Source of the DNA: an uncultured Prolixibacteraceae bacterium
GTDB taxonomy: Bacteria > Bacteroidota > Bacteroidia > Bacteroidales > FEN-979
Length of the DNA stretch: 32,000 nt
Direction: 5' to 3'
Assembly (NCBI GenBank): GCA_964429135.1
Contig: CAYSAU010000017.1
Coordinates: 23,538 to 55,537, forward strand
The notes under the pieces were generated by a model. The model saw only the letters and a list, made by a program, of their open reading frames with translations, searched no databases and was not told where the DNA came from. Both the position numbers and the translations under genes were made by a program. How positions within the stretch are numbered: the first letter of the stretch is position 1; each line of letters begins with the position of its first letter. Below, piece after piece: positions 4,716-20,345 of the stretch.

Positions 4716-4772
4716 GATTATCTGGTCAACTCTTAAATTTCACAAAAAAATATCAAAGTGTTAAAATTTTTG

Positions 4773-4805
4773 TATTTTTGTTTCGTTATTCTACGAAATA
4801 CAAAA
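4773..4805 (+). promoter_or_regulatory. Candidate arsR1 promoter -7 box overlapping an imperfect palindrome (putative ArsR operator)
   Basis: TATTTTTG at 4773..4780 fits TAnnTTTG. The palindrome is TTTCGT (4781..4786), a 6-nt spacer, then ACGAAA (4793..4798). It is extended by TTTTG (4776..4780) pairing with CAAAA (4801..4805), with a 2-nt bulge. It ends 3 nt before the ATG at 4809. Confidence 0.45.
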
Positions 4806-4808
4806 TAT

Positions 4809-5117
4809 ATGAGCACGAAAAGAAAATATTATACTGAATCCCAGGAGAAAATGTCCCGGTATGCGAAAGCCATTGCGCATCCGGCAAGGGTCTATATCCT
4901 AGACTTCCTTGCCGATAACATGGATAAGTGTTGTTACAGCGGCGACATGGCTGAAGATATCCCTATTGCCCGATCAACCCTTTCAGAACATCTGAAGGCA
5001 TTGAAGGAGGCTGGCCTCATCCAGGGAGAAATCAATCCTCCTTATATCAAATATTGTATCAACAAAACCAATTGGGATGAGGCCAGGGAGATGTTTGAGG
5101 ATTTTTTCGGAAAATGA
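4809..5117 (+). CDS. arsR: ArsR/SmtB family metalloregulator (paralog 1)
   Basis: Winged-HTH core AHPARVYILDFL...IARSTLSEHLKALKEAGLI. A vicinal Cys pair (DKCCYSGD) sits at the position of the As(III)-binding CxC of type-1 ArsR. Start is assigned to ATG 4809; the track ORF start at 4758 adds a hydrophobic junk extension. Confidence 0.85.
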   Translation: MSTKRKYYTESQEKMSRYAKAIAHPARVYILDFLADNMDKCCYSGDMAEDIPIARSTLSEHLKALKEAGLIQGEINPPYIKYCINKTNWDEAREMFEDFFGK

Positions 5118-5148: not shown

Positions 5149-5382
5149 ATGGAAATAAAAATATTAGGCACGGGCTGTCCTAAATGCAAGACACTGGATA
5201 AACTCACCCACGAAGTGGTTGAAAAAAATAACATTGACGCCACCATTACAAAAGTGGAAGACATTATGGAAATCATGAAGTACGGGGTCATGTCAACGCC
5301 TGCACTGGTGGTTGATGGCAAAGTAATCCTTAAGGGACGTGTTCCTTCAGCAGAGGAAATCAAACAACTATTAACCAAATAA
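5149..5382 (+). CDS. Small thioredoxin-fold protein (redox-active disulfide protein 2 type)
   Basis: 77 aa, MEIKILGTGCPKCKTL... with a CPKC redox motif near the N-terminus and the STPALVVDGK cis-Pro region. This matches the small Trx-like proteins commonly found beside ArsR-regulated permeases. Confidence 0.85.
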   Translation: MEIKILGTGCPKCKTLDKLTHEVVEKNNIDATITKVEDIMEIMKYGVMSTPALVVDGKVILKGRVPSAEEIKQLLTK

Positions 5383-5392
5383 AACGATTAAA

Positions 5393-5824
5393 ATGAGAAG
5401 AATTATCATTTTTTTTATGGCATTGGTCGTAGCAACCGGCATTTATGCTTGCACAGGTAGCTCATCCAACAATTTAAACGAAGCAGCATATATTGCTCCT
5501 GATAAAAAGATTGAGGTTTTCTATTTTCACTTTACCCGTCGGTGTATGACATGCAACAACGTGGAGAAAGTGTCCAAGGAGGCTGTTGAAAAACAGTTTG
5601 CAGCACAGGTGAAAAGGGGCGAGATTACATTTACAAGTGTCAACCTTGACGAAAAAGATGGTCAAGCAATAGGTGCAAAGTATAAAGTCGAAGGACAATC
5701 ACTGATCATCATTTCCGGTGATAAACGTGTTGACCTTACCGATAAGGGATTTATGTACGCTAACAACAGCCCGGAGAAACTGAAAGCGGAGATAAAGACA
5801 GCGGTGGAAGGCATGATGAAATAA
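5393..5824 (+). CDS. Periplasmic thioredoxin-like CxxC lipoprotein (ArsF-like family naming in public annotation)
   Basis: Lipoprotein signal MRRIIIFFMALVVATGIYAC (Cys+1). A single CxxC motif is present (FTRRCMTCNN). The size is 143 aa. I recall similar proteins being annotated as the ArsF family, but I cannot verify that here. Confidence 0.65.
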   Translation: MRRIIIFFMALVVATGIYACTGSSSNNLNEAAYIAPDKKIEVFYFHFTRRCMTCNNVEKVSKEAVEKQFAAQVKRGEITFTSVNLDEKDGQAIGAKYKVEGQSLIIISGDKRVDLTDKGFMYANNSPEKLKAEIKTAVEGMMK

Positions 5825-5909: not shown

Positions 5910-6608
5910 ATGCAATGGTTACAAACCCTATTGGAAAATTCTCAATATGCAGCGCTTACAGCATTTATCCTGGGCTTGATGACGGCCATCAGCCCTTGTC
6001 CCTTGGCGACCAATATTTCTGCCATCGGTTTCATTAGCAGGGATATTGAAAACCGCAGACGGGTATTTGTCAAAGGCTTGGTTTACACGCTGGGACGTGC
6101 AGTTTCATATACAGGTCTGGGGTTTGTTTTGTTTTTTGGTGCAAGTAAAATGCATGTTACAATGCTTTTTCAGGGATGGGGTGAGAAAATCCTTGGGCCA
6201 TTGCTGATCATCATCGGATTGTTGATGCTCGATCTCATCAGGATAAAATTTCCCGGATTTTCAGGATTGACAGAAAAAATGGGAGAACACAGCAAACACA
6301 GCTACTGGGGAACATTGATGTTAGGAATGGTCTTTGCCATGGCATTTTGCCCTTACAGCGGCGTGCTCTACTTTGCCATGCTCATACCCATGACAATAAC
6401 CAGCGTAAGTGGACTGTATTTGCCAGTTGTCTTTGCCATTGCAACCGGGCTTCCTGTGATCATTTTTGCATGGTTGCTTGCCTATGCAGTAGGGAATGTA
6501 GGGAAACTATACAACCAGATTAAAACTTTCGAACTTTGGTTCCGCAGAGTTGTTGCTGTTCTATTCATTTTGGTGGGGATCTATTATATCTTGATTTTTC
6601 TGATCTAA
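5910..6608 (+). CDS. CcdA/DsbD-like transmembrane thiol-disulfide transporter (ArsG-like family naming in public annotation)
   Basis: 232 aa with about 6 TM helices. One Cys lies in each half within Pro-containing TM motifs (AISPCPLATN and AFCPYSGV), as in the CcdA/DsbD-beta electron-transfer core. Confidence 0.7.
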   Translation: MQWLQTLLENSQYAALTAFILGLMTAISPCPLATNISAIGFISRDIENRRRVFVKGLVYTLGRAVSYTGLGFVLFFGASKMHVTMLFQGWGEKILGPLLIIIGLLMLDLIRIKFPGFSGLTEKMGEHSKHSYWGTLMLGMVFAMAFCPYSGVLYFAMLIPMTITSVSGLYLPVVFAIATGLPVIIFAWLLAYAVGNVGKLYNQIKTFELWFRRVVAVLFILVGIYYILIFLI

Positions 6609-6663: not shown

Positions 6664-7983
6664 ATGGAATTTAAGAAAGAAATAAAAATTCTGGGATGGT
6701 TGTTGGTGGGATTTTTGGCAGTGTTTTTTTTACCGTTGGGAAATCAAGTATTCAACACGGCTATTGATGCTACTCTGGACCTTTCCAAATGGTACGCTCG
6801 GGAGCATGTGGTGCTTTGCCTGCTGCCGGCTTTTTTGATTGCCGGGGTGATCTCAGTGTTTGTCAGCCAGGCCTCCGTGATCAAATACTTCGGAGCTAAA
6901 GCAAAAAAATGGGTAGCCTATACCGTGGCAGCGGTTTCTGGAACCATTCTGGCTGTTTGTTCCTGCACGATTTTACCCTTATTCTCCAGCATTCATAAAC
7001 GGGGAGCCGGATTAGGACCCGCCATCGCCTTTCTTTATTCAGGTCCGGCCATCAATATCCTGGCCATCATCCTTACAGCCAGGATTTTAGGATTTGAACT
7101 TGGTCTTGCCCGGGTGATTGGCGCTGTTCTCTTCAGTGTTATCATAGGATTGATCATGGCCTTCATATACCGGAAAGAAGAAAGAACGAAGGCAGAAGAA
7201 CAAATGAATTTCCCGGATATTCCGGAAACCCGTCCGCTTTGGCAAACTTCTTCCTTCTTTTTCACACTGGTACTGATACTGGTATTTGCCAACTGGGGAA
7301 AACCTGAGGCGGGAGAGACCACTGGGTTATGGTACCAGATATGGCACCTCAAATGGTTCATCACCGGGGCGTTCGGACTGATTCTGGGGGTTATTATGGT
7401 GACGGTATTGAAGCTGAAAAGCTGGCAGGTTGCCATGGCTGTTGTAGCTACCGGATTGACAGCCCTGCTTTTTCAAAACCCGATGATCTCTATGGTAAGT
7501 GGTATCGCGGCTGTAAGCATCATCAGTTTATTGGACAAGGCTCCAGAAAGTGAAAACCGTGAATGGATCCTTTCAAGCTGGGGATTTACCAAACAGATTG
7601 TTCCCCTGCTGGCTATCGGGGTAGTGATCGCCGGGTTTCTCCTGGGATCGACTCACGATGATGTGAGCATCCCCGGAGTGATCCCTAACACCTGGGTGGC
7701 CTGGCTGGTAGGAGGTAACTCCCTTTGGGCAAACCTATCTGCTTCCGTTATAGGGGCGTTCATGTATTTTGCCACCCTTACCGAAGTGCCTATTTTGCAA
7801 GGACTTATCGCTTCGGGGATGGGAAAAGGACCGGCACTGGCGCTGTTGTTGGCCGGACCTTCATTGTCGCTGCCCAATATGCTGGTGATCAGGGGGGTGA
7901 TTGGCATGCAAAAAACATTGGTATATGTAGTGACGGTGATTGTTCTATCGACGGTTGCAGGGTTGATTTTTGGAATGGTATAA
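6664..7983 (+). CDS. UPF0718/ArsP-like permease
   Basis: 439-aa polytopic membrane protein. It has the intramembrane vicinal cysteine motif AVCSCTILPLF that is characteristic of the predicted-permease family containing the organoarsenical exporter ArsP. A central cytoplasmic loop (YRKEERTKAEEQ) separates two repeat halves. Confidence 0.75.
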   Translation: MEFKKEIKILGWLLVGFLAVFFLPLGNQVFNTAIDATLDLSKWYAREHVVLCLLPAFLIAGVISVFVSQASVIKYFGAKAKKWVAYTVAAVSGTILAVCSCTILPLFSSIHKRGAGLGPAIAFLYSGPAINILAIILTARILGFELGLARVIGAVLFSVIIGLIMAFIYRKEERTKAEEQMNFPDIPETRPLWQTSSFFFTLVLILVFANWGKPEAGETTGLWYQIWHLKWFITGAFGLILGVIMVTVLKLKSWQVAMAVVATGLTALLFQNPMISMVSGIAAVSIISLLDKAPESENREWILSSWGFTKQIVPLLAIGVVIAGFLLGSTHDDVSIPGVIPNTWVAWLVGGNSLWANLSASVIGAFMYFATLTEVPILQGLIASGMGKGPALALLLAGPSLSLPNMLVIRGVIGMQKTLVYVVTVIVLSTVAGLIFGMV

Positions 7984-8074: not shown

Positions 8075-8842
8075 ATGAAAAAATCAATCGGTTTTATCGG
8101 CTGCGGGAGAGTTACCCGGATTATTCTGCAAGCTTTTCAGAACAAAGGGTTTACTACCCTTAAAGTCGTGGTGAGCGATACCAACAATGATGTGACTGCA
8201 AACCTTCAGCGCCTGTTCCCGTTTATTACCATTGCACCGGCTGAAGAGGCTGCGAAACAGTCAATTCTCTTCATCGCGCTGCACCCTCCGGTCATCATGG
8301 AAACCTTGGATAAATTAAAAGGGTTTATTTCCCCGGATGCCATTGTGATCTCCCTTGCCCCGAAGATCACCATCGAAATGATCTCTGGAAAATTGAACGG
8401 GTTGATTAAGGTAGCCAGGCTAATCCCCAATGCCACTTCAGTGATCAACGAAGGCTTCAATCCCGTTGCCTTTTCCAAAGGCTTCACGCCTAAGGAGGAT
8501 ATCCTTGACCTTTTGAGATTACTGGGCGATACTTTTGAAACAGAGGAATCCAAACTGGAAGCCTATGCCATCGTCTCTGCCATGTTGCCCACTTATTTCT
8601 GGTTTCAATGGCAGGAGTGTGTGAAGATTGGTGAACAGATTGGTTTGACAGGCGAAGAGTCGCGCCAGGCAGTAGCCGCAACCCTGGATAAAGCGATACA
8701 AACCTTGTTTTCATCTGGAATGACCTGCGATCAGGTCATCGATCTGATCCCGGTAAAGCCCCTCGGGGAGTACGAGAGGCAGATCAGAGAGATTTTCAAC
8801 ACAAAACTGATTGGTTTATTTGAAAAAATTCAACCAAAATGA
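8075..8842 (+). CDS. Pyrroline-5-carboxylate-reductase-like NAD(P)-binding oxidoreductase (non-canonical)
   Basis: N-terminal Rossmann motif MKKSIGFIGCGRVTRII and a P5CR-like length (255 aa). I cannot find the ProC C-terminal S/T-P-G-G-T-T signature. The stop overlaps the next start (ATGA at 8839..8842). Confidence 0.65.
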   Translation: MKKSIGFIGCGRVTRIILQAFQNKGFTTLKVVVSDTNNDVTANLQRLFPFITIAPAEEAAKQSILFIALHPPVIMETLDKLKGFISPDAIVISLAPKITIEMISGKLNGLIKVARLIPNATSVINEGFNPVAFSKGFTPKEDILDLLRLLGDTFETEESKLEAYAIVSAMLPTYFWFQWQECVKIGEQIGLTGEESRQAVAATLDKAIQTLFSSGMTCDQVIDLIPVKPLGEYERQIREIFNTKLIGLFEKIQPK

Positions 8843-11304
8843 AAATATATCTTCTGAGTAGTTTGGTGCTGCTGGCTGTCTTTTTGGCTTTCATGATGAC
8901 TATGCATCAGGAGAAGCGTAGCCCTGTGTCTGATCGTAACCTCATCACCAAAACAGGTGTTTGCCCTCCATTTTATCTCTATGCTGAAGACGGCAGTCTG
9001 ATCGATCCTGTTCACAACATCAATGCCCAAGTGCCCTATTCTCCGAAACAGACCTGCGGGAAATGCCATGATTATAGTAAAATCACCAAAGGGTTTCATT
9101 TTCAGCAGGGGAAAGATGAAATGGCTTACGGAGCCTATGCCGAACGCTATCAATGGGTAACCACACCGGGGAACTATGGCGGTAACTGGTGTTCACCGGC
9201 TCCGCTTTACAATTATCTGTCCCCTAAGGATAATCCATCGGCAAAAGAGATGGATATGACCTCCTTTTCTTTTATCACCAGTGGTTGCGGAACATGCCAT
9301 CCGGGAGGAGGCTCATTTGAATTCGACCGTAACGGAAAACGTTATCCGGAAGCGATGAAAGAACTTGGTTATTCAGCCGGTGGGATAAATAATTTTGACG
9401 GAGATTATTACCAGGCACATTGGGATAAGAGTGGGGTAGGGGAAGGCGACTGCATGCTTTGTCATTTACCTGAATACGATTTCAAAGGCCGGAATACTCA
9501 TTTACTGAAATGGAACTTTGCCTGGATGTCCACAGTCGGATCGGGATTGGCATCCGTTTCCGGATCTGTCAAAGACTCGGTTCCGGTAACCGTTAGTTAT
9601 GACGTGTCGAAGTTCGGCAAGGACGGAAAGCTTTCCATGCACTTGTTGCGGGAACCCCGTAATGAAACCTGCCTGAACTGTCATGCCAAACCACAGTGGA
9701 AAAAGCGGGGAGCCTCTTTTTCAGCTACTACCGATGTCCATATGGCTAAAGGAATGAAGTGCGTGGATTGTCATCCAGCCGGCTCCATGTCTACAGATGA
9801 ACGGATTAAAGGGAAAGAGATTCACCAGTTTGGAAAAGGCGACGACCCCGGAGGACATGTTCGGGATGATCTCGACAACACGATGCGGACATGTAAAGAC
9901 TGCCATCTCACCGGGTATCTGAACGCTCCGATTGCCAACCATTCTTGGCTTCCCGCCTTCCACCTGGAGGAGCTCTCCTGCCAGGCCTGCCATATCCCGG
10001 AACGCAGGGTTAAAGCGGCATTGGTACAAGTCAGCGATGTGTACAATCCCGGGACAAAAATTTCACCCCCGGCAAAGTATATCTGGACCTTTTATGATCA
10101 ACAGATGAATTACTGGAATCATTACGGTGAGCTATCCATGTTTACGTACATGGACCAGCCATCCGATCCTTTTATACCGCAATATGCGCAATATAAGGAA
10201 CAGATCTTCCCGGTGAATCCGGTTCATAGCGCCTGGCCGGGGATTTTTACCCCTGGAAAAGCAGGCTTACACCAGCCTAGGATGAAGGATGTCTATGACA
10301 TGTGGACCAAACACCGGAAGGATCAGACCGCTTTCCCGGAACTCGCCCTGATCAGAGATGACAACGGTGACAGCATCCCGGAAGTTAACCGGCCGGAAGA
10401 AATCGATGCCCTGATACACTCCCTTAGCGGTTACCTTTCCAGCATCGGATACAACCTAACCGCCCGAAAGGTGGTTTGGGTGAACAACGACAGGATGTAT
10501 ACGAACGGCAACTCCTATAAAATGTTGGACAAAGAGGATTGGGAATCCTCTCCATACGCCTCTGTATACAAATACAACCACGATGTAGCTCCCGCCAAGG
10601 CGGGACTGGGAATCAAAGGGTGCACGGAATGTCATTCCTTTACCTCCGCTATGTTTTACGCTCAGGTCGTTAAATATCCATTTGGTGAAAACGGAGCTCC
10701 TGTGCTTGAACCTCAGTACAAACGAATGGGAATGAACGGTTTTTTCGTCTGGATGTCGGCTTTCCGCGAACAGATCCTTAAATCGGTTGAATATCCCGCT
10801 TTTATGCTCCTGTTCATACTGATCGTACTTTCCATCCTGATGAAGGTAAATCAAACGCAAGGTTATATAAAGATCACATCCGTCACCAGGTGGATCATCT
10901 GTGGCATTGCATTTACCGGTTTTCTTTTTGTTTATTACCAACCAGAACTGAACAGTTACATCCTTCCTGAACGGATGTGGCTGGATAAAAATCATTTCTG
11001 GATCAGCGGACTGGCGATCCTGATTGGGATCTATACCTGTCTGGTGATGCGAAAGGCCGGCATAAAGTCTGGATGGTTATACCATCTCCAAAACATCAGC
11101 ATCTGTATGGCCGTTGTTTCTGGGTTCTTGATGGTGATACGCTTTGAGGCGATTGAGCTTCTGGTGAAAGTGGCTTATACAATGTTTGACCTGGGTATTG
11201 TCGTCTCCATCCTGCTAGCTATGATCTGTTTCCTTCGTAATCTGGCTAACTTTCAGAACGACAATTTCCAACTCTTTCCTATGTTTACCTTTCCGGAAAA
11301 TTAA
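8839..11304 (+). CDS. Octahaem c-type cytochrome with a C-terminal five-helix membrane domain
   Basis: 821 aa with an N-terminal signal/anchor (LLSSLVLLAVFLAFMM). Eight CxxCH motifs are present: CGKCH (aa 73-77, nt 9055..9069), CGTCH (150), CMLCH (205), CLNCH (278), CVDCH (308), CKDCH (352), CQACH (381) and CTECH (595). Five hydrophobic helices span roughly aa 652-799. Confidence 0.85.
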   Translation: MKIYLLSSLVLLAVFLAFMMTMHQEKRSPVSDRNLITKTGVCPPFYLYAEDGSLIDPVHNINAQVPYSPKQTCGKCHDYSKITKGFHFQQGKDEMAYGAYAERYQWVTTPGNYGGNWCSPAPLYNYLSPKDNPSAKEMDMTSFSFITSGCGTCHPGGGSFEFDRNGKRYPEAMKELGYSAGGINNFDGDYYQAHWDKSGVGEGDCMLCHLPEYDFKGRNTHLLKWNFAWMSTVGSGLASVSGSVKDSVPVTVSYDVSKFGKDGKLSMHLLREPRNETCLNCHAKPQWKKRGASFSATTDVHMAKGMKCVDCHPAGSMSTDERIKGKEIHQFGKGDDPGGHVRDDLDNTMRTCKDCHLTGYLNAPIANHSWLPAFHLEELSCQACHIPERRVKAALVQVSDVYNPGTKISPPAKYIWTFYDQQMNYWNHYGELSMFTYMDQPSDPFIPQYAQYKEQIFPVNPVHSAWPGIFTPGKAGLHQPRMKDVYDMWTKHRKDQTAFPELALIRDDNGDSIPEVNRPEEIDALIHSLSGYLSSIGYNLTARKVVWVNNDRMYTNGNSYKMLDKEDWESSPYASVYKYNHDVAPAKAGLGIKGCTECHSFTSAMFYAQVVKYPFGENGAPVLEPQYKRMGMNGFFVWMSAFREQILKSVEYPAFMLLFILIVLSILMKVNQTQGYIKITSVTRWIICGIAFTGFLFVYYQPELNSYILPERMWLDKNHFWISGLAILIGIYTCLVMRKAGIKSGWLYHLQNISICMAVVSGFLMVIRFEAIELLVKVAYTMFDLGIVVSILLAMICFLRNLANFQNDNFQLFPMFTFPEN

Positions 11305-11347: not shown

Positions 11348-13735
11348 TTACTGTCCCACTCTGATCAGCCCTTCCTCTGACTCAGAGGTCGTTGGTTTTT
11401 TCACTTTTTGCTGGGTTTGAGCATGCATCGACCAGGAGAGACCAACCCAAAGAACCCTGGAATCGGTCTTGCTCGTATTATGGAGCGTAAACTGCTCGTT
11501 TGTGGTTTCGATAATCCATCTGCGGCTGTTGAAGATATCCGAAAGGGTGAGTGATAAGGTGAATTTCTTGTCAAAAAAGGATTGCCTAACACTCAAATCT
11601 GTAGTATGGATCCCGTGCAGAAAAAACTCAGGCAGGTCAGAGGGGGAACTGTAAGAAAAGGTTCCCAGGATTTCTCCCTGTTTCCAAGGGAAAAATGATG
11701 CTTTGATCGAAAAGCCCCAGGCAAAGCCTTCTGAAGAGAGATCTACCCCTTTAAAATTACCTGCTGATTTGCTATACCACACGGAGATCCCCGATTGAAC
11801 AGTCATCCATCTGCCAACATCAAGGGTTCCATCAATCCCTCCACCGATTTTTCGCAGCCAGTCGCCGTTGGCATAGGTAGTCACCAGGGTATCAGGCGGA
11901 ATCAGGTATGAAACCTGTACGATGAAATTCCGGGCATCGCTGTAGTACAGCTGACTTAACAAGCGGAAGTTTTTTGTAGAATAGCTGTGGCTGAACTCAA
12001 CTTTGCTGGTTAGTTCCGGGTTGAGGTTCTTGTTCCCTGTTTCCACCGTTTTTTCATCAATCACGTTGATGTAGGGATTCAACTGGGGATAGGTCGGACG
12101 GGTTACGCGCCTTGTATATCCCAATGAGAGGTTTTGGGTGGGTGAAAGTGACAGGGAGAGCTCCAGAAAAGGGAATGGGAAGAAATACTCCGCAAAAAGG
12201 TTCTCGCCTGTCGTGTTCTGATGAAGATTTCGGGTATTGTATTCCAGCCGGATGCCTGCTTTCCAGAAGAGTCTGCCGAAAAGACTGTCGGAAGCCATGG
12301 CATATCCGGCATAAATGTACTCGTGTTGCTCCAGATCGTTGGAATAAGTGGGATTCAGGATCCAGGCACCTGAAAGTGTATCCAGGTTCCAGAAGTTGTA
12401 GGCAAATGAGTTCCATCGGGAAAAAAAACGTAATCCGGTTTCCAGTTTTCCCTTGCGGAACACCGGCCTGAGATAGTCAGCATGAATGGTCACATTGGTT
12501 GGGGCTCCTCCTCCCTCGGATTTCTGCAGGAGGCGATCCTCCAGGTAATAATCGGCAAAACGTGTTCCTTTGGTACGGGAGAAAAAGGTCTCTATGGAGA
12601 ATTCATGGCGGTTCCGGTCAAAAATATGCTTGTAGTTCAGTGAAACCTCCGCCATTGTCCGGGCATGAGTGATGTCGTTCCTACGATGAAGTCCGGTTAC
12701 TGTATCGGCTCCGGAAATCTGAGAGCCTTCCACCTGCTGGTCGTTCCTCAGGCTGGGAAAAGATAATTTTGCATCCAGCGATAACACATCCCGTTTCCCT
12801 GGTCTATATCCGGCTGATAGTGACACCTGCTGTGTCTCGCTGAAACGCCGGGTGTACATTGTCTGGTTCACCTTCTCCCCGGATGCTAAAAAAGTGCGGT
12901 TGAGCGAACTGCTGATCTGCTGGGGGTCGTATCGGCCGGTATATCTGATACCGACATCCCAGACCGCGTTGGCAAATGAAAATGCTGCTCCTCCATTGAC
13001 CTTATTGGAAATCCCCCAGTTCAGGTTGGCTGACCCGGAAATCCCGGAAGCTTTGCGCTGTTTGGTTACAATGTTGACGATGCCACCGGTTCCTTCGGCA
13101 TCGTAGGCGGCATCCGGACTGGTGATCAGTTCGATGTTGCTGACCTGGGAGGCCGGGATTGCATCAAGTGCCGATAGGGTAGTGGGTCGACCGTCAAGAA
13201 GCACCAGGATGTTTTTATTTCCCCTTAGGTAGATATGGTCGTTGTGATCGATGGTGACTGCCGGTTGACTCTTCAGCACATCCAGGATATTACCGGAAGC
13301 AGATCCCGCACTTTTGGCAACTTGGATGGTGGTCTTTTCGACTGTGGTCTCCTGCTCCCTGACCCTTCCCACTACCTGTAATTCGTTCAGAGAAACCGAG
13401 GAAAGACTTAGCCCGATGGGATCAGGAAGATGATATAATCTTCCCAGAAGCCGAACCGGTACATAGGCATGGTTATACCCAACAAAACTGCAACGCAGCA
13501 GGTAATCACCCGGTGTGACTCCGAAAATCCGGAATTCTCCCTTTTGCGTAGTGACCACACCGGTAACCAGCGCGGTGTCGGTAGTCCGGCATAAAACCAC
13601 ACTGACATATTCAAGTGGTTGACTGGTTAAGGAATCGATCACTATTCCTGAAAAAACAACCGTTTCCGGTTTTTGAGAAAAGGCATAAGGAAGATAATGA
13701 AAGAAAATTAAACAAAGGAGGAAAAAAAACTTCAT
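11348..13735 (-). CDS. TonB-dependent receptor-like outer-membrane beta-barrel with an N-terminal CarboxypepD_reg domain
   Basis: 795 aa with signal peptide MKFFFLLCLIFFHYLPYAFS. A carboxypeptidase-regulatory-like domain follows (GIVIDSLTSQPLEYVSVVL...GEFRIFGVTPGDYLLRCSFVGY), then a plug-like region. The long barrel has alternating beta-strand patterns and an aromatic C-terminal region (VLWVGLSWSM). Confidence 0.85.
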   Translation of the reverse strand: MKFFFLLCLIFFHYLPYAFSQKPETVVFSGIVIDSLTSQPLEYVSVVLCRTTDTALVTGVVTTQKGEFRIFGVTPGDYLLRCSFVGYNHAYVPVRLLGRLYHLPDPIGLSLSSVSLNELQVVGRVREQETTVEKTTIQVAKSAGSASGNILDVLKSQPAVTIDHNDHIYLRGNKNILVLLDGRPTTLSALDAIPASQVSNIELITSPDAAYDAEGTGGIVNIVTKQRKASGISGSANLNWGISNKVNGGAAFSFANAVWDVGIRYTGRYDPQQISSSLNRTFLASGEKVNQTMYTRRFSETQQVSLSAGYRPGKRDVLSLDAKLSFPSLRNDQQVEGSQISGADTVTGLHRRNDITHARTMAEVSLNYKHIFDRNRHEFSIETFFSRTKGTRFADYYLEDRLLQKSEGGGAPTNVTIHADYLRPVFRKGKLETGLRFFSRWNSFAYNFWNLDTLSGAWILNPTYSNDLEQHEYIYAGYAMASDSLFGRLFWKAGIRLEYNTRNLHQNTTGENLFAEYFFPFPFLELSLSLSPTQNLSLGYTRRVTRPTYPQLNPYINVIDEKTVETGNKNLNPELTSKVEFSHSYSTKNFRLLSQLYYSDARNFIVQVSYLIPPDTLVTTYANGDWLRKIGGGIDGTLDVGRWMTVQSGISVWYSKSAGNFKGVDLSSEGFAWGFSIKASFFPWKQGEILGTFSYSSPSDLPEFFLHGIHTTDLSVRQSFFDKKFTLSLTLSDIFNSRRWIIETTNEQFTLHNTSKTDSRVLWVGLSWSMHAQTQQKVKKPTTSESEEGLIRVGQ

Positions 13736-13812: not shown

Positions 13813-13859
13813 AACGTAAAAATACGTCATTATAAAAACCAACGTATATTTGCGTCATT
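13813..13859 (+). promoter_or_regulatory. arsR2 promoter region: two 19-bp direct repeats, each containing ACGT-N7-(A/G)CGT; the second overlaps a -7 box
   Basis: AACGTAAAAATACGTCATT (13813..13831) and AACGTATATTTGCGTCATT (13841..13859) are identical at 15 of 19 positions. TATATTTG at 13845..13852 fits TAnnTTTG and lies 30 nt upstream of the ATG at 13883. Confidence 0.5.
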
Positions 13860-13863
13860 CATT

Positions 13864-13879
13864 TTCAAATTTTCAAATC
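13864..13879 (+). repeat. 16-nt element TTCAAATTTTCAAATC, copy 1 (3 nt before the arsR2 ATG)
   Basis: Exact 16-mer shared with 15549..15564. It is itself a tandem TTTCAAAT duplication. Confidence 0.6.
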
Positions 13880-13882
13880 GAC

Positions 13883-14218
13883 ATGGTTGCAGCTAAAACA
13901 GGACTATTCGACCAAGATCTTAAAACCAGTGCTACTTTCTTCAAAGCATTGGGTCACCCAGCCCGTCTGACTATCCTGAAATATCTGGGTGGAATGCAAA
14001 TGTGCATGACCGGTGACATCTGCGATGAGTTGCCCCTGAGCAGAACCACCGTGATGCAGCACCTGAAAGCGTTGAAAAAAGCCGGACTGATTCAGGGAAC
14101 GGTAGAAGGTACGCGGGTGAACTATTGCCTGAACCCCTGTGCCATCAAAGATCTCAAAAAAATATCCAATGACTTGTTACTTGAACTGAACATTTCGGGA
14201 AACAACACATGTCACTAA
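13883..14218 (+). CDS. arsR: ArsR/SmtB family metalloregulator (paralog 2)
   Basis: HTH core GHPARLTILKYL...LSRTTVMQHLKALKKAGLI. Cysteines in MCMTGDICDEL occupy the position of the As(III) site. Start is assigned to ATG 13883. This is the first gene of arsR-arsC-arsM-acr3. Confidence 0.85.
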   Translation: MVAAKTGLFDQDLKTSATFFKALGHPARLTILKYLGGMQMCMTGDICDELPLSRTTVMQHLKALKKAGLIQGTVEGTRVNYCLNPCAIKDLKKISNDLLLELNISGNNTCH

Positions 14219-14244
14219 TCATCAACAGATTAAAATATAAATAC

Positions 14245-14664
14245 ATGACGAAAATTCTTATACTTTGTACCGGGAACTCTTGTCGAAGCCAGATGGCCGA
14301 AGGGTTTCTGAAATCATTTGACCCTTCGCTGGAGGTCTTTTCAGCCGGTACCCATCCAGCTTCTAAACCTAATCCGTATGCGGTGGAGGTCATGCGGGAA
14401 GCAGGCATCGATATCTCATCCAACCAACCTAAAAACGTTGGTTTGTTTGTGGATCAACCCTTTGATTATGTGATTACGGTATGCGATGGCGCCAAAGAGG
14501 TTTGCCCTCTTTTTACCGGTAAGGTTGAACACCGCCTCCACATCGGTTTTGAAGACCCAGCCGATGCTTGCGGAACCCGGGAAGAAATCTTATCGGTCTA
14601 TCGGAAAGTCAGGGATCAGATTCATGAACGGTTTTTGAAATTCTATCAGGATTTGAAAACTTAA
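14245..14664 (+). CDS. arsC: Arsenate reductase, LMW-PTP/thioredoxin-coupled type
   Basis: P-loop CTGNSCRS (CX5R-S, nt 14266..14289) in MTKILILCTGNSCRSQMAEG. The downstream Cys pair VCDGAKEVCP (spacing C-x6-C) matches the Cys82/Cys89 disulfide cascade of Trx-coupled ArsC. Start is assigned to ATG 14245. Confidence 0.9.
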   Translation: MTKILILCTGNSCRSQMAEGFLKSFDPSLEVFSAGTHPASKPNPYAVEVMREAGIDISSNQPKNVGLFVDQPFDYVITVCDGAKEVCPLFTGKVEHRLHIGFEDPADACGTREEILSVYRKVRDQIHERFLKFYQDLKT

Positions 14665-14685
14665 AGATTTGAAAATAAAAAAGTT

Positions 14686-15510
14686 ATGAAGAATAATAAA
14701 AAGAAGATCAATCTAAAAGAACTGGTACAAAAAAAATACAGCGAGATCGCCAATCAATCGAAAACCGCGAACCAGTCATCCTGCTGTGGGAGTGGACCCT
14801 GTTGCGGAGAAGCGGATTATACCGTGTTCAGCGACGATTATACCGGAAATGATGGGTATAACCCTGATGCCGATCTGGGACTTGGATGCGGGATCCCGAC
14901 AGATTTTGCCCAATTGAAACCTGGAGATCATGTTCTCGATCTGGGCAGCGGCGCCGGCAACGATTGTTTCGTGGCCCGCGCGCTGGTTGGGGATGCAGGC
15001 CACGTGATCGGCCTCGACTTCACTGATGCCATGATCGAAAAGGCCGGTGAAAACAACCGGAAGATGGGTTATGCCAATGTGGAATTTGCGAAAGGCGACA
15101 TTGAAGCGATGCCGTTTCCGGATAACCGCTTCGATGTGATCCTCTCCAACTGTGTACTGAATCTGGTCCCCGACAAAGGAAAAGCATTTGCCGAGATCTT
15201 CCGGGTACTGAAGTTCGGGGGACATTTCTGTATCTCCGATGTAGTTCTGAGGGGAGAACTGCCCGAAGCCCTGAAAAAAGATGCTGAACTATACGCCGGT
15301 TGCGTTTCCGGAGCCATCGACAGGGATCAATATACAGCCATTATCCGGAAAACAGGCTTCCTGGAGATCACTATTCATAAAGAAAAACCTATCAAACTTC
15401 CCGATACATTGCTGTCAAACTACCTCAGTGAAAAGGAAATAATTGATTTCAAGAAAGGCAAAACCGGCATCCTCAGCATCACAATCTCCGGAAGAAAATT
15501 TGAAAATTAA
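14686..15510 (+). CDS. arsM: Arsenite S-adenosylmethionine methyltransferase
   Basis: SAM-binding motif [14 protein letters not shown] Cys-rich N-terminus ([12 protein letters not shown]) is present. Conserved cysteines occur in [15 protein letters not shown] and YAGCVSGA, consistent with the ArsM As(III)-binding cysteines. Confidence 0.9.
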
Positions 15511-15548
15511 AAAATCATCAGCACCTCAAAATCAAAACACTAATAATC

Positions 15549-15564
15549 TTCAAATTTTCAAATC
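15549..15564 (+). repeat. 16-nt element TTCAAATTTTCAAATC, copy 2 (1 nt before the acr3 ATG)
   Basis: Exact match to 13864..13879. It lies in the 55-nt arsM-acr3 spacer. Confidence 0.6.
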
Positions 15565-15565
15565 A

Positions 15566-16624
15566 ATGAAGACTCAACTCAAAATCTTAGATAGATACCT
15601 GACCCTGTGGATTTTTCTCTCCATGTTTGTTGGCGTTTTTTCAGGGTATCTTTTTCCAGTCGTAGTGGATTTTTGGAACATGTTCAACTCCGGCACCACC
15701 AACATTCCCATCGCCATCGGACTCATTCTGATGATGTACCCTCCGTTGGCCAAGGTGAAGTATGAGGAGCTGGGGATGGTGTTCCGGAACGTCAAGGTTC
15801 TCGGGCTTTCCCTTATCCAGAACTGGATCGTGGGGCCTATATTGATGTTTACCCTGGCCATCGCATTCATCAAGCTCTTCCCTGGAGAAAATTATTCCAA
15901 CCTTCCGTATATGTACGGGATCATTCTGATCGGACTGGCCCGGTGCATTGCCATGGTGATCGTGTGGAACGAGCTGGCCAAAGGGGATACGGAGTATTGT
16001 GCCGGGTTGGTGGCCTTAAACTCCATTTTCCAGGTTCTTTTGTTCTCTGTCTATGCCTATCTGTTTATCGCCATCATGCCCGGATGGTTCGGTGTACCTA
16101 CCAATCCGATTGTAGAACAGATCACCATCGGCCAGATTGTCGAGAGCGTTTTCATCTATCTTGGGATCCCCTTTATTGCCGGCTTCCTAACCCGGTTTAT
16201 CCTCATCCGGGTTAAAGACAAAACCTGGTACCATACGAAATTCATTCCGAAAATCAGTCCGCTCACCCTCATCGCCCTGCTGTTCACGATCGTGGTGATG
16301 TTCAGTCTCAAAGGGGAGTACATCGTCAAGCTACCGCTGGATGTAGTGATGATTGCCATTCCCCTTATCCTTTATTTTCTGATCATGTTCCTGTTCTCCT
16401 TCTGGATGAGCAAAAAGGCGGGTGCAAACTACCCTCAATCGGCTACTTTGTCGTTCACCGCTGCCAGCAACAATTTTGAGTTGGCTATAGCCGTAGCCAT
16501 CGCTATTTTCGGGATCACCTCCGGCGAAGCCTTTGCCGCCGTGATCGGCCCCCTGGTCGAAGTCCCCGTGATGCTGGGGTTGGTTAGTCTGGCTTTCTGG
16601 TTCAAAAAGAAATACTTTACCTGA
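15566..16624 (+). CDS. acr3: ACR3 family arsenite efflux transporter
   Basis: [17 protein letters not shown]... is a typical Acr3 N-terminus. The protein has about 10 TM helices and the conserved Cys in [15 protein letters not shown]. The track ORF start at 15443 would overlap arsM by 68 nt with a low-complexity extension, so ATG 15566 is preferred. Confidence 0.9.
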
Positions 16625-16664: not shown

Positions 16665-19600
16665 TTAATCTACAAAATCTCTCGTTGCTGTTAATGTGGA
16701 ATATTGCTTCAATATAGCAAACAACTTCTCCTTTTGTATTGGTTTTGCCAGATAGCCATCGCAGCCGGCAGCCAGAAAGCGTTGTTCATCACCGGTTTGT
16801 GCATAAGCGGTAGTTGCGATAATGGGTAACTCAGGGCGGAACTCACGGATACGCGTAGTTGCTTCCAACCCGTTCATAACAGGCATTTTAATATCCATCA
16901 GCACCAGCGAAATATCGGAATATTGTTTGCATAAGGACACGGCTTCTTCACCATTTTTGGCCAGCAGGTAATCGCATCCGGCCAATCTCAAAACAACTTC
17001 CATGTAAAAATAATTTGATTCTTCATCTTCGGCTAAAAGTACCAGGGGTTTCCTTACCGGAGAAGTATTTTTCTTCCCGGCTGGAAGTGTTTTATCGGCA
17101 TGCTCCCTTACTACGTAAGGTACCGTAAAGGTGAAGGAGGAACCTTTGCCTTTTTCGGAAGTGGCTGAAATGGCGCCTCCAAGCAGTTTAACCAAACCAC
17201 TGGCAATGGAGAGCCCAAGCCCACTGCCTTCATGGCCGCGTTTATCGGATGGGTCTTCCTGGGTAAACATAGTAAAAATTTCATCCAGCATTTTTGGTGC
17301 TATCCCTCTACCGGTATCCTTTACATAAAATTCAACAAAGCCTTCATTAAGTTTGTATCCACAGCCTATACTTCCCCTTTCAGTAAATTTCAATGCATTG
17401 TCTAACAGCGCATGAAGTGTTTTACCGATCAATTCGGGATCAGAATCAAGGACTAAATCAGCGTCATGGTGATTATCAGTTTCAAACGATATGCTTTTAG
17501 ATGTGCATAATTGCATTACATCTTTTGTAATTTCTTCAAAGAATGGTTGTAAGAGGAACTCTTTTTTATGCACCTCCATGGTGCCAGAAAAAATCCGCGC
17601 CATGTCCATATAATCCCTCACGGTATTCATCAGGCGGTTACTCGATTGTTGCACCATTGCAAGCATTTTCTCTTTATCTTCCAGAGAAATGCCTTCATCC
17701 AACATTAATTTGCCAAACCCCAGTATTCCGTTAAGTGGTGTTCTGATTTCGTGTGAGATATTATTGATAAATGCTGTTTTCAGCTTGTCGCTTTCCTGGG
17801 CTTTTTCTTTGGCCGCGACCAATGCTTCGAGTGTCCTTTTTCTGTCGGTGATATCTTGCTTAATACTGACAAAGTTGGTGATAACTCCCTCACGATTTAC
17901 AATGGATGAGATAATCGCCTTTGCCCAGTACAATTCCCCGCTTTTCTTTTTATTTAAAAATTCACCCTCCCAGTTGTTGCCCGAAAGAATGGTATCCCAA
18001 ACCTCCTTGTAAAAGGCTTTGGAATGATGCCCTGATTTCAAAATATTGGTTTTTTTGCCTTTTACCTCGTCAAAGCAATAGCCTGTCAATTCTGTGAAAA
18101 ATGGATTGACATATTCAATAATGCCTTCTATGTTGGTTATCATTACCGAGATTGAACTTTGTTCAACGATCCTGGAAAGTTTAATCGCCTGTTCCTCTAA
18201 CTGTATATGTTCAGTGATGTCTCTTATACATGCTACCCTAAAATATTCACCATTATAAAATATGTCCTTGGCTTCAATTTCGGCATCGAAAGTAGAGCCA
18301 TCTTTTCGTATTACCTTTATTTGATAGGGTGTTGCAACTTTTTTTGAAAGATTAGCTTTCACGATTGCATGCGAAACAGGATGAATCAGGTTGAATAAAT
18401 GCATCCCTGTCAATTCATCTCTTTCGTAACCAAGCATTTTTACTGCGCTTTGATTGACATCAATGGTGATGGCATTATTGTGGATAATAATTCCTTCAAA
18501 GGTAAAAGATGCCAGCTTCTTGAATCTGTCCTCGCTTTCTTTTAATTTTTCTTCCGTCTTCTGTTTTTTGATGATAATGGAAGCTTGTTGAATAAATGCT
18601 TCGATCAGTTCGGTGTTGATGGGTTCGGATTTTGTATTTGTGGTGAAAGTGACATTGCCGATAATTTGCGTGTCTTGTTGAAAAGCAATGCTATACATCT
18701 TTTCGATAGAGAACATCTTTTTGACAGTATTGCCGATGGCGGCCGAGAGTCTGTCATTGAAAAGACCCGGAAAGTCAAATTCCATTTCTTCTAATCTGCC
18801 GCTGGTAATCTTTTCATAATATTTGGTTGAAATTTCTCCTTCCAGCTTGTTGATGTCAAATCCGAGAAGCCTGGAAAGTTCAGCCGTTTTTTTGCCAATA
18901 CCCTCTGTATGCTTTATTTTCCATCGGTTTTGACTAGGATCATATTCCAACAGAGCAACGATTGAATGGCCTTCAAATAATTCGTAGAGTTTATGAACCG
19001 TATAGGTGTAGATTTCCTGAATGGAAGTTAACTCAACCATTTCGAATGCAGTTTGAGCCAGAAAAGCTTTATGTTTCTCACTTAGTCGCAGCGCTTCCTC
19101 AGCCTGCTTGCGTTGGGTGATGTCGGAGAATACCGTGGAGAAAAAACCCCTTTGCGGACATCCTGCAGTGACATGGAGATATTTATCCAAAGGTGGAAAG
19201 TAAGCTTCAAATTCTGCTGGTTCGCCAGTTTCGGCAACTTGAGCATAGGTTTCAAGAAAGGGTATCTTTTTTGTTCCATATAGCTCTGACGCTTTTATCC
19301 CGATCACTTCTCCACGATTTTTTCCGATAATTCTATTGTAAGCAGGATTCATATCCAAAATGATGTAATCAACAGCTTTCCCGTTTTCGTAAATAATCTC
19401 ATCCAGACAACTGGCAGAAGCCATGTTCTCAAACATTGACTTGAATTGAGATTCACTTTTTCTGAGCGACTCTGATGTTTTTTGATAATCCGCTTTTACT
19501 CTTGCTTCCTCCAGCGCCCGCTTTACGGCTATGGGAAGCCTTTCGTGCCTGTCTTTTAATACATAGTCCACTGCACCCAGCTTAAGCAATTCAACGGCAG

Positions 19601-19895: not shown

Positions 19896-19898
19896 CGT

Positions 19899-20345
19899 TT
19901 ATTCCATTGAGGGTTTTTCATTCAGCATGGCCCAGAACACGCCGATGTGTTTTACCGCTTCAAGAAAATCCTTGAAGTTTACCGGTTTCACCACATAGGC
20001 ATTGACACCCAGGGCATAGCATTTTTTCAGGTCGGATTCTTCGCGAGAAGCTGTAAGCATGACTATTGGAAGCATTTTTAATTTTTCATCGCGCCGGATG
20101 GCTTCCAGCGTTTCAATGCCATCCATACGAGGCATTTTAATATCCAGCAGCAGCACAACTGGGTTCCCCTTTTTACGGGTTTTGAACCGGCCTTCATAAT
20201 TCAGGTATTCCATTACTTCCACACCGTCGTTAGCCACAACCACCTGGTTCGCGAGCTTATGTTCCTTTAATGCTTCAAGGGTCAGTTCCACGTCCTGAGG
20301 ATTGTCTTCGGCTAGCAATATTGTTTTTAATTCATTCATGATCAT
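19899..20345 (-). CDS. Stand-alone receiver-domain response regulator
   Basis: ILLAEDNPQDVEL...LLLDIKMPRMDG...MLTAS...KP are the REC hallmarks, and there is no output domain. The start ATG overlaps the upstream kinase stop (TAATG). The stop lies 3 nt before the hybrid kinase start. Confidence 0.9.
   Translation of the reverse strand: MIMNELKTILLAEDNPQDVELTLEALKEHKLANQVVVANDGVEVMEYLNYEGRFKTRKKGNPVVLLLDIKMPRMDGIETLEAIRRDEKLKMLPIVMLTASREESDLKKCYALGVNAYVVKPVNFKDFLEAVKHIGVFWAMLNEKPSME

Follow-up and report, generated by a model that had tools for sequence, protein, structure and literature searches.

An octahaem c-type cytochrome family of ArsR-headed arsenic islands and its probable descent from cytochrome bc fusions

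To our knowledge, changes in the oxidation state of arsenic are catalysed by molybdoenzymes (Arr, Aio, and Arx) or, in the case of ArsC, by small thiol reductases, and no cytochrome has been described in ars operons. A 32,000-nucleotide stretch of DNA from an uncultured Prolixibacteraceae bacterium (assembly GCA_964429135.1, contig CAYSAU010000017.1; hereafter the window, in whose own numbering positions are given) raises the question of what a multihaem cytochrome does in such a setting. Its ArsR-headed gene cluster ends with the gene for an octahaem c-type cytochrome of 821 aa (8839..11304, + strand), which carries eight CxxCH motifs, an N-terminal signal/anchor, and a C-terminal five-helix domain. 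Directly upstream lies the gene for a 255-aa NAD(P)-binding protein with the fold of pyrroline-5-carboxylate reductase (P5CR; 8075..8842, +; PF03807), whose nearest PDB entries are pyrroline-5-carboxylate (P5C) reductases. An earlier note on this DNA had described both open reading frames (ORFs) and the ATGA at 8839–8842, where the stop of the P5CR-like gene overlaps the start of the cytochrome gene; all were present as described. The note had also proposed that the two proteins form an arsenic-inducible electron conduit across the membrane. The link between the cytochrome family and ars islands is real and general, and it extends across phyla. With moderate confidence, we lean towards reading the cytochrome as an accessory, membrane-tethered periplasmic octahaem redox protein of ArsR-controlled islands, which would be wired to a thiol relay and/or to menaquinol.

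The octahaem cytochrome and its link to arsenic islands

The CxxCH motifs of the 821-aa protein begin at aa 73, 150, 205, 278, 308, 352, 381, and 595, against approximately 0.003 motifs expected by chance (our estimate from residue frequencies), and all eight were invariant among 60 homologues. No CxxCK, CX3CH, CX4CH, or CX15CH variant was found in the protein. The first seven motifs form a core at 9055..9993 (+; nt 9055–9069, 9286–9300, 9451–9465, 9670–9684, 9760–9774, 9892–9906, and 9979–9993), which is followed by a haem-free insert of 209 aa between haem 7 and haem 8 (9994..10620, +). AlphaFold2 modelled aa ~440–580 of this insert as an alpha/beta domain with good confidence; in the sister groups, the insert is present, shorter, and different. 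The eighth CxxCH (aa 595–599; 10621..10635, +) lies approximately 35 residues ahead of the first C-terminal membrane helix, and it is invariant across all four architectural classes of the family. Hydropathy showed an N-terminal hydrophobic segment at aa 1–24 and five more segments between aa 645 and 806. The motif positions, the insert of about 210 aa, the signal/anchor, and the five helices noted earlier were borne out by the motif scan, hydropathy, and AlphaFold2.

The earlier note could not assign the cytochrome to HAO, OTR, ONR, or MccA, and searches of Pfam, NCBIfam, and the PDB likewise matched no characterised octahaem family. Comparison of the sequence with PDB chains gave a chance match only (E 0.87), and Foldseek against the PDB returned nothing below E 0.5 for the full-length AlphaFold2 model, which was poor in the haem region. 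OTR, MccA, and HAO/ONR resemble the window protein in having eight c haems and a periplasmic location, and weak local similarity of haems 4–7 to OTR and NrfB was detected (TIGR04315, 33.6 bits with a cut-off of 375; NrfB, 40.5 bits with a cut-off of 184). Assignment to OTR, MccA, HAO, or NrfA was rejected because the scores were far under the cut-offs and both the CxxCK motif typical of NrfA and a long-spacer motif such as the CX15–17CH of MccA are absent. Moreover, we know of no OTR, MccA, HAO/ONR, or pentahaem NrfA/NrfB protein with a fused membrane domain. Likeness to NapC/NirT/CymA covered residues 193–312 only (PF03264, cut-off 24.1 bits), and the architecture of the window protein is otherwise unlike theirs.

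A search of 5.8 billion proteins gave 1083 homologues. The best 120 of them were mostly ~815 aa long and 54–99% identical, and the fullest name that they carried was 'multiheme c-type cytochrome'. A pattern scan with one genome per species found relatives in 413 GTDB species, the best 80 of which were all represented by metagenome-assembled genomes (MAGs). These 80 belonged to Bacteroidota, Ignavibacteriota, Hydrogenedentota, KSB1, Latescibacterota, Nitrospirota, Planctomycetota, Sumerlaeota, Spirochaetota, Armatimonadota, and Chloroflexota. A tblastn search of 72,556 plasmids with the cytochrome gave no match. In the literature searched, no multihaem cytochrome was described as part of an ars operon, the coverage being incomplete so that an earlier description is possible; the papers on Melioribacter (PMC5492636) and Anaeromyxobacter (PMC4432346) make no mention of this cytochrome gene.

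The gene neighbourhoods were surveyed at 83 cytochrome-centred loci, in which ORFs were called and searched with the window proteins and with accessory proteins from two of the loci (L001/L002). ArsR was found in 60 loci, ArsP in 51, ArsE in 43, ArsG and ArsF in 35 each, Acr3 in 32, ArsC in 28, and ArsM in 17. Other recurrent genes encoded the P5CR-like protein (36), a rhodanese-like protein (29), a thioredoxin (Trx) lipoprotein (29), an AlgE-like porin (Alginate_exp; 22), and DGC (14). When the survey was confined to the 36 loci flanked by 5 kb or more in each direction (the well-flanked cytochrome loci), ArsR was present in 30, at least one of ArsP, ArsC, ArsM, and Acr3 in 28, and ArsP in 26, while ArsC, ArsM, or Acr3 lay within 10 kb of the cytochrome in 20. 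The genes recur as cassettes, namely, ArsR-ArsE-ArsF-ArsG-ArsP-CYT-P5CR (CYT, the cytochrome), ArsR-rhodanese-CYT-P5CR in Bacteroidales, and ArsR-ArsP-CYT-ArsE-DGC in Latescibacterota, Nitrospirota, and Anaerolineales. Co-location and co-orientation with arsR and other ars genes were conserved over distant taxa, as is expected of an ars-island component, and the arsenic association suspected in the earlier note holds across genomes.

In the rhodanese-like protein of these cassettes (~140 aa; L006:13513-13929 and 28 other cytochrome loci), the catalytic Cys is exchanged for Asp ('FADxVGLRS'), and the C-terminus bears a conserved CxC motif, 'SGSCMCQLK'. Its gene stands in the order ArsR-rhodanese-(cytochrome)-P5CR-like.

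Besides the window family, three architectural classes of relatives were recognised. The b561-type sisters (840–1230 aa) share the same 7+1 haem module and continue into a C-terminal PF01292 domain, with TIGR01583 above its cut-off, as found by exhaustive profile search and domain scans; by their sequence, these C-termini are bona fide FdnI/HydC-type dihaem cytochromes b. The soluble relatives (577–590 aa) are without a membrane domain. In the thioredoxin-fused relatives (P0151, P0498, and P0479), a C-terminal thioredoxin domain takes the place of the membrane domain, and its CIPC is the motif of the Trx lipoprotein encoded in ars islands.

The soluble relatives are found within ars operons. 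At L170, the order is ArsR-ArsP-Trx3-Trx-CYT-porin-ArsC-Acr3, and at L171 and L172, it is ArsR-ArsP-Trx3-DUF6951-CYT-ArsM-ArsC-Acr3-Trx-DsbD; in all three, the cytochrome gene is co-strand and stands mid-string among the ars genes. The thioredoxin-fused P0151 (L169:8001-10031) belongs to the string ArsR-ArsP-...-Trx3-Trx-DsbD-DGC-CYT::Trx-AhpC. As a control, the b561-type relatives were located away from ars genes in all five examined cases. The ars-linked branches appear to have had the b-haem domain depleted of His, deleted, or replaced by a thioredoxin domain, and the octahaem–thioredoxin fusion hints at a coupling of haem and thiol redox chemistry in ars islands.

The gene that follows this fusion at L169 encodes an AhpC/TSA-type redoxin. 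Just upstream of the b561-type relatives, a Gfo/Idh/MocA oxidoreductase gene was seen in three of the five cases (L168, L174/L175, and L176/L177), and in two of these three, an ApbE flavin-transferase gene was present as well. This arrangement suggests that those relatives belong to a separate, conserved dehydrogenase–cytochrome–quinone system unrelated to arsenic.

Origin of the membrane domain and ligation of the haems

The five-helix membrane domain comprises aa 634–804 (10738..11250, +) and was modelled by AlphaFold2 with a pLDDT (predicted local distance difference test) of 87, its helices being 634–674, 681–700, 719–739, 746–767, and 770–804. The domain matched no Pfam family (PF01292 included) and no NCBIfam family (TIGR01583 included); its profile gave chance matches only against the PDB, and Foldseek with its model returned no PDB entry below E 0.5, FdnI included. 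An origin was indicated by hhalign, in which the tail of the window family aligned with the tails of the b561-type relatives with a probability of 98% (E 7e-14). When the shared pre-membrane motif and the first helix were left out, transmembrane helices (TM) 2–5 alone gave 48% (E 2e-4). Helices 4–5 still aligned with the 'TGxxM ... YTLHD' region of the b561-type relatives, and 'YTLHD' lay over the window family's 'AYTLFD'.

Five His columns are conserved in the b561-type tails, and the window family keeps one of them, H719 on the periplasmic side. The lost columns are Phe or variable, the His of YTLHD reading Phe. The conserved residues of the membrane domain are R643, E644, K648, P710, R712, D716, N718, H719, F720, G762, Y780, and D784, and by the positive-inside rule, all of them would lie in periplasm-side loops or at periplasmic helix ends. 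The five helices are accordingly interpreted as descending from an FdnI/HydC-type cytochrome b and as having lost most of its conserved His. FdnI and HydC (formate dehydrogenase-N gamma subunit and Ni/Fe-hydrogenase cytochrome b; PF01292) are the probable origin of the domain, which differs from them in lacking four of the five His columns of b561-type tails, and the octahaem module was probably inherited from a lineage fused to such a dihaem cytochrome b. Since one His is retained and no Pfam, NCBIfam, PDB, or Foldseek match was obtained, haem-b electron transfer across the membrane by this domain is unlikely. As the single conserved His is on the periplasmic side, a chain of cofactors spanning the bilayer is not provided, and since nearly all b-haem ligands are lost, the cytochrome is better seen as tethered in the periplasm than as a wire across the membrane. 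The five helices could serve as an anchor, perhaps with a retained periplasm-side quinol or ligand site, and without passage of electrons across the bilayer.

Among described proteins, the family of the inner-membrane cytochrome CbcL of Geobacter sulfurreducens is the closest comparison. CbcL proteins carry nine CxxCH motifs and three conserved b-haem His, and most have six helices (PMC6295460). Similar to the window protein, CbcL, MtoC, and MtrH join an N-terminal periplasmic multihaem c domain and a C-terminal multi-helix membrane domain in one polypeptide, and the CbcL architecture, a multihaem c domain with a HydC/FdnI-type dihaem cytochrome b, is that of the b561-type sisters. Compared by description only, the window protein differs from CbcL in its eight CxxCH motifs, five helices, single conserved His, and lack of a PF01292 match. 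Moreover, CbcL acts in extracellular electron transfer, whereas the window family resides in ars islands. Membership in the CbcL type was rejected because the b-haem His ligands, its defining feature, are not kept. Nevertheless, the window protein probably works most like CbcL-type cytochrome bc fusions and descends from them.

The same membrane domain bears on a reading in which the five helices oxidise menaquinol at a periplasm-side site and electrons pass along the octahaem chain to arsenate or a pentavalent organoarsenical, either in respiration or in detoxification, so that the thiol relay is not needed; CymA, NrfH, and ImcH, which combine a membrane anchor with c haems, provide the analogy. 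Descent from a quinone-linked cytochrome b fusion lineage agrees with this reading, as do the periplasm-side clustering of the conserved membrane-domain residues near haem 8 and the weak NapC/NirT-like similarity (PF03264, 21.3 bits). Ignavibacteriota also carry the family (L049 and L053), and cultured members of this phylum were reported to respire arsenate without canonical Arr (PMC5492636). However, that study of M. roseus credits arsenate respiration to molybdoenzymes (PMC5492636), and many of the carriers are Bacteroidales MAGs. Furthermore, no known quinol-binding family was detected using Pfam, NCBIfam, PDB profiles, or Foldseek, and quinol is not the donor of the soluble and thioredoxin-fused ars-linked relatives, as these are without the membrane domain. 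A quinol-dependent arsenical reductase was therefore judged unlikely, while far from negligible.

In the haem region, conservation points to unusual ligation. Two cysteines outside the haem motifs are invariant, namely, Cys42 ('VCPPF', nt 8962–8964, just upstream of the seven-haem core) and Cys118 ('WCSPAP', nt 9190–9192), of which Cys118 is specific to the window family. At position 42, the window family has Cys, the soluble and thioredoxin-fused relatives have His, and the b-type forms are mixed. This Cys/His switch fits, and suggests, an axial haem ligand position, and one haem is probably His/Cys-ligated through Cys42. Six non-motif His are kept in all four architectural classes (H87, H301, H329, H368, H375, and H581). 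Together with position 42, they make seven distal-ligand candidates for eight haems, so that one haem may differ or have an open sixth site.

Separability of the P5CR-like gene

The earlier note had seen a P5CR layout without the ProC signature in the 255-aa protein, and both observations were upheld. Pfam F420_oxidored (PF03807) matched residues 5–95 (5e-10), P5CR_dimer remained below its cut-off (17.2 bits with a cut-off of 25), and the nearest solved structures were P5C reductases (3e-26). The Rossmann and P5CR dimerisation layout is shared with ProC and its ComER-like paralogues. The 21 aligned members of the P5CR-like family have the motifs GFIGGGR, SLAPK, RLIPNATS, SAMLPTYFWFQW, and DLIPVKP, and the glycine-rich Rossmann loop GFIGxGR is conserved in the family, in keeping with the NAD(P)-binding fold of ProC. 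In contrast, the SAMLPTYFWFQW and DLIPVKP motifs and the ars-island context, instead of proline synthesis, set the protein apart from ProC. The S/T-P-G-G-T-T motif was absent from all 21 aligned members; in ProC, it presumably occupies the C-terminal region where DLIPVKP sits here, a placement made without a ProC alignment. Since the TIGR00112 proC score was below the cut-off (89.9 with a cut-off of 196.75 bits) and the signature motif is absent, a functional ProC was rejected. No signal peptide was found in the 255-aa protein, and no flavin- or haem-binding feature was detected in it by Pfam and NCBIfam. We predict that it is a cytoplasmic, NAD(P)H-dependent enzyme acting on something other than P5C.

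Whether this protein is a fixed partner of the cytochrome was judged from 80 metagenome loci centred on its subfamily, 25 of which have at least 1.5 kb on both sides. The cytochrome was present in 18 of the 80 loci and in 8 of the 25 well-flanked ones, and conversely, the P5CR-like gene was present in 23 of the 36 well-flanked cytochrome loci. Many islands with the P5CR-like gene are cytochrome-free and read ArsR-ArsE-ArsF-ArsG-ArsP-P5CR-ArsR2-ArsC-(ArsM or HgcA)-Acr3 or ArsR-rhodanese-P5CR, and outside Bacteroidota, the cytochrome is mostly without a P5CR-like neighbour. Where both occur, the usual order is the cytochrome followed by the P5CR-like gene, 17–200 nt apart (~34 loci). An overlap as in the window was seen only in its closest relative (L004), and another locus (L005) has the same order with a gap of ~24 nt. 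Both genes keep company with ars genes, but each is often found without the other. As the P5CR-like gene is often in ars islands without the cytochrome and vice versa, it is not an obligate partner, and the neighbourhoods point to a separate ars-island member and not to a dedicated electron feeder of the cytochrome. Database and neighbourhood checks turned up neither a functional ProC nor a known cytochrome family with an unrelated role and a pair lying away from ars genes, either of which would have spoken against the interpretation in the earlier note.

The conduit proposed in the earlier note, in which the cytoplasmic P5CR-like protein would bind to the membrane domain and feed electrons from NAD(P)H through it to the eight haems, draws on the translational coupling in the window, on the immediate same-strand neighbourhood of the two genes in ~37 loci, and on the predicted cytoplasmic C-terminus of the cytochrome. 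STEAP-type reductases, in which an F420_oxidored fold is fused to a haem-containing membrane domain, offer a precedent. However, the single conserved His on the periplasmic side leaves no cofactor chain, 17 of the 25 well-flanked P5CR-like loci are without the cytochrome, the cytochrome is without the P5CR-like gene in most non-Bacteroidota loci, the gene order is variable, and Pfam and NCBIfam gave no sign of flavin or haem binding for the 255-aa protein. A STEAP-like NADPH-to-haem transmembrane reductase was likewise rejected because the membrane domain has no His pair and the dehydrogenase gene is separable. With separable genes, a usually reversed order, one of five His kept, and ars-linked relatives free of a membrane domain, the proposed conduit did not hold up, and we regard it as highly improbable.

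Regulation, thiol relay, and possible function

The ArsR-headed cluster on the same strand, with gaps of 10 to 91 nt, was confirmed as the earlier note had it, and its genes matched HTH_5, ArsE, ArsF, ArsG, and ArsP_1. The first gene, arsR1, encodes an ArsR/SmtB-family regulator (4809..5117, +; Pfam HTH_5, 8e-11; NF033788, 47 bits, below the cut-off of 55). The ATG at 4809, which gives 102 aa as in L084/L085, is the more likely start compared with the GTG at 4758. It is followed by genes for an ArsE-family thioredoxin-like protein (Thioredoxin_3; 5149..5382, +; TIGR00412, 125.6 bits, cut-off 62; PF13192), predicted to be cytoplasmic, and for an ArsF-family protein (5393..5824, +; NF040494, 111.3 bits, cut-off 60). 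The latter has a hydrophobic N-terminal leader, a candidate lipobox Cys (…IYAC…), and a CxxC in RRCMTCNN, and is predicted to be a periplasmic thiol protein. Next come genes for an ArsG-family/CcdA-DsbD_2 membrane protein (5910..6608, +; NF040495, 315.4 bits, cut-off 200; Pfam DsbD_2, 1.4e-20), a candidate transmembrane thiol–disulfide relay, and for an ArsP_1-family permease (6664..7983, +; Pfam PF03773, 2e-67). The gaps between successive genes, from arsR1 to the P5CR-like gene, are 31, 10, 85, 55, and 91 nt.

In NCBIfam, the three families are named MTH895/ArsE family thioredoxin-like, nitrophenyl compound nitroreductase subunit ArsF family, and aromatic aminobenzylarsenical efflux permease ArsG family. 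By sequence, ArsE, ArsG, and ArsF look like a relay from a thioredoxin through a CcdA-type protein to a periplasmic CxxC protein. The cluster resembles the ArsEFG organoarsenical resistance system with ArsP, its ArsE, ArsF, and ArsG genes all scoring above the NCBIfam cut-offs, and the cytochrome and the P5CR-like gene are recurrent additions to this cassette; we know of no described ArsEFG/ArsP system with either gene. The possibility that ArsE/F/G are merely a CcdA/ResA-like cytochrome-maturation system was rejected because ArsR-ArsE-ArsF-ArsG-ArsP is common without a cytochrome.

The cluster is preceded by a promoter/operator region (4773..4798, +). It consists of a TAnnTTTG box at 4773–4780, which we take to be a -7 box of the Bacteroidetes type, and a directly following palindrome, TTTCGTTATTCTACGAAA, at 4781–4798, which ends 11 nt ahead of the arsR1 ATG. 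The window has no exact TTTCG-N8-CGAAA other than this copy ahead of arsR1. Across 1.78 Mb from 162 related loci, 98 copies were counted, with ~1.7 expected, which is a more than 50-fold enrichment, and 66 of 177 fetched loci carried the palindrome. Within 200 nt downstream of it lay the genes of ArsR1-type regulators (52), ArsP (19), ArsC (9), ArsE (5), the cytochrome (3), the P5CR-like protein (2), and the rhodanese-like protein (2). The palindrome is probably the operator bound by ArsR1, and its conservation would tie the genes of the pair to an ArsR1-type regulator. In the 91-nt gap before 8075, neither a terminator nor a TAnnTTTG box was seen; a scan for sigma-70 promoters and terminators gave counts at chance level, the method being ill-suited to Bacteroidota. 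The layout is consistent with one arsR1-headed transcript that includes the P5CR-like and cytochrome genes.

A second copy of the palindrome often stands directly upstream of ArsP, ~1.8 kb past the first (e.g., L001, 5616 and 7553). It implies an internal regulated promoter in many islands, of a kind that the window does not have.

The regulator also bears on the view that the system is not concerned with arsenic. On this account, the trigger of the ArsR1-type regulon is another thiol-reactive stress (e.g., reactive sulfur species/polysulfide, antimony, tellurite, or selenite), the substrate of the cytochrome is a sulfur or chalcogen compound, on which it acts with a His/Cys-ligated haem of the TsdA/SoxAX type, and the proximity of ArsC/ArsM/Acr3 reflects shared islands. 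The islands do contain thiol and sulfur genes, namely, those of the rhodanese-like protein, TauE, DsbD/CcdA, Trx, AhpD-like CMD, and AhpC (L169), and Cys-ligated c haems are typical of sulfur enzymes. ArsR1 itself has a two- or three-Cys pattern (Cys58 and Cys100 invariant and Cys59 usual among 46 homologues, in the numbering of the 119-aa ORF) and weak similarity to the persulfide/sulfite sensor BigR (22.6 bits). However, the cytochromes of L170–L172 lie inside co-strand ArsR-ArsP-...-ArsM-ArsC-Acr3 strings, the operator also precedes nine ArsC genes, and the upstream genes exceed the ArsE, ArsF, and ArsG cut-offs of NCBIfam. Moreover, part of the cytochrome-bearing cassettes has a homologous counterpart in Pseudodesulfovibrio mercurii ND132, an ArsR-ArsP-ArsE-DGC operon that is reported to be upregulated by arsenic (bioRxiv 10.1101/2022.10.17.512643). 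A role unrelated to arsenic was thus considered distinctly unlikely.

For the favoured reading of a tethered periplasmic redox protein, the following mechanism can be proposed. Reducing power would reach the periplasm through the thiol relay of the island, from the ArsE-type thioredoxin via the ArsG/CcdA-type protein to ArsF or a Trx lipoprotein. Menaquinol, bound at the periplasm-side cluster of R712, D716, N718, H719, Y780, and D784 next to haem 8, could be an alternative or additional donor. The haem chain would couple these electrons to a redox reaction on a periplasmic arsenical or arsenic–thiol adduct, possibly at the Cys-ligated haem. Reduction of a pentavalent arsenical driven by thiol or quinol would be thermodynamically easier than anaerobic oxidation of a trivalent one. 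The P5CR-like protein would belong to the same ArsR1 regulon and act independently, its translational coupling to the cytochrome being incidental to this lineage.

A bolder proposal makes the cytochrome a molybdenum-free, haem-based periplasmic arsenical oxidoreductase. In it, the thiolate-ligated haem of Cys42, perhaps with Cys118, would bind As(III) or a methylated or aromatic arsenical, and a chain fed by CcdA/thioredoxin or by menaquinol would change its oxidation state, while the P5CR-like protein would reduce a pentavalent organoarsenical and ArsP would export the product. This proposal was regarded as quite unlikely.

Several points weigh against the reading that we favour. The haem region was predicted by AlphaFold2 with low confidence (pLDDT of the full-length model, 68), and because the model is poor there, the ligation scheme rests on conservation only. 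The homology of TM2–5 to FdnI-type domains is moderate when taken alone (48%), with Pfam and Foldseek blank, and the membrane domain may still hold one b haem on the periplasmic side, or one for which H719 and a residue of the soluble domain serve as ligands. The window is without the genes for the CIPC Trx lipoprotein, the rhodanese-like protein, and DGC that occur at other loci, so that ArsF would be left as the thiol partner. In ~37 loci, the P5CR-like gene directly adjoins the cytochrome gene on the same strand, an adjacency that exceeds loose island membership and could reflect a functional link. ArsR1-type regulators (C58/C59 and C100) could sense another thiol-reactive stress. Finally, no experiment on any member of the family was found in the literature.

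Beyond the cytochrome gene, a convergent gene encodes a TonB-dependent-receptor-like outer-membrane beta-barrel (11348..13735, −; Pfam OMP_b-brl_3, 1e-72), whose membership in the system is uncertain. The outer-membrane channel adjoining the cytochrome varies, being OMP_b-brl_3 in the window, Alginate_exp in 22 of the 83 loci (e.g., L002, 8519–9943), and Porin_O_P in L170 (9731–10771), which hints that a dedicated outer-membrane passage for the substrate is part of the system.

A second ars operon follows (13850..16624, +), consisting of arsR2 (13850–14218, +), arsC of the low-molecular-weight protein tyrosine phosphatase type (14209–14664, +), arsM (14686–15510, +), and acr3 (ORF 15443–16624, +). 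The listed acr3 ORF starts at a TTG (15443) and overlaps the end of arsM (15510) by 68 nt; its conserved ACR3 match does not start until residue 46, and translation more likely begins at an in-frame Met near 15566. In other islands, HgcA, the corrinoid protein of mercury methylation, is encoded in ArsR2-ArsC-HgcA-Acr3 strings (L001:20792-21823, NF040863, 432 bits, cut-off 275; also L007, L093, L110, L116, L127, L140, and L142). There, hgcA occupies the slot that arsM has in the window, which fits the reported link between hgcAB and arsR.

Directly after acr3, on the opposite strand (16665–22375, −), lie two large genes for PAS/GAF hybrid histidine kinases, of 1076 and 676 aa, and a gene for a stand-alone receiver of 170 aa. 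Farther on, a single 599-aa ORF (25031–26830, −) joins Dak2, FakA middle, and DegV domains, as if the A subunit of fatty-acid kinase had been fused to a fatty-acid-binding protein of the FakB type.

What appears new in these results is a multihaem cytochrome lineage that, judging from its sequences, was remodelled and captured by arsenic islands. Hundreds of anaerobic, mostly uncultured species from more than 10 phyla carry this octahaem family, which sits within ars operons and is linked to an ArsR-type operator. In evolutionary terms, it exemplifies a respiratory fusion of the cytochrome bc type that has shed its b haems and been drawn into a stress regulon, and the P5CR-like gene is a second widely conserved ars-island member without an assigned function. 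The octahaem family also provides candidates in the search for arsenate respiration without Arr, for redox handling of methylated arsenicals without oxygen, and for the real role of the ArsE/F/G thiol relay. If the haem-based oxidoreductase proposal were true, the cytochrome could be the missing enzyme of Arr-independent arsenate reduction or of oxygen-independent organoarsenical detoxification in anaerobes. If the family acts on arsenicals, it would represent a new enzyme class in the anaerobic arsenic cycle of sediments, digesters, and wetlands.

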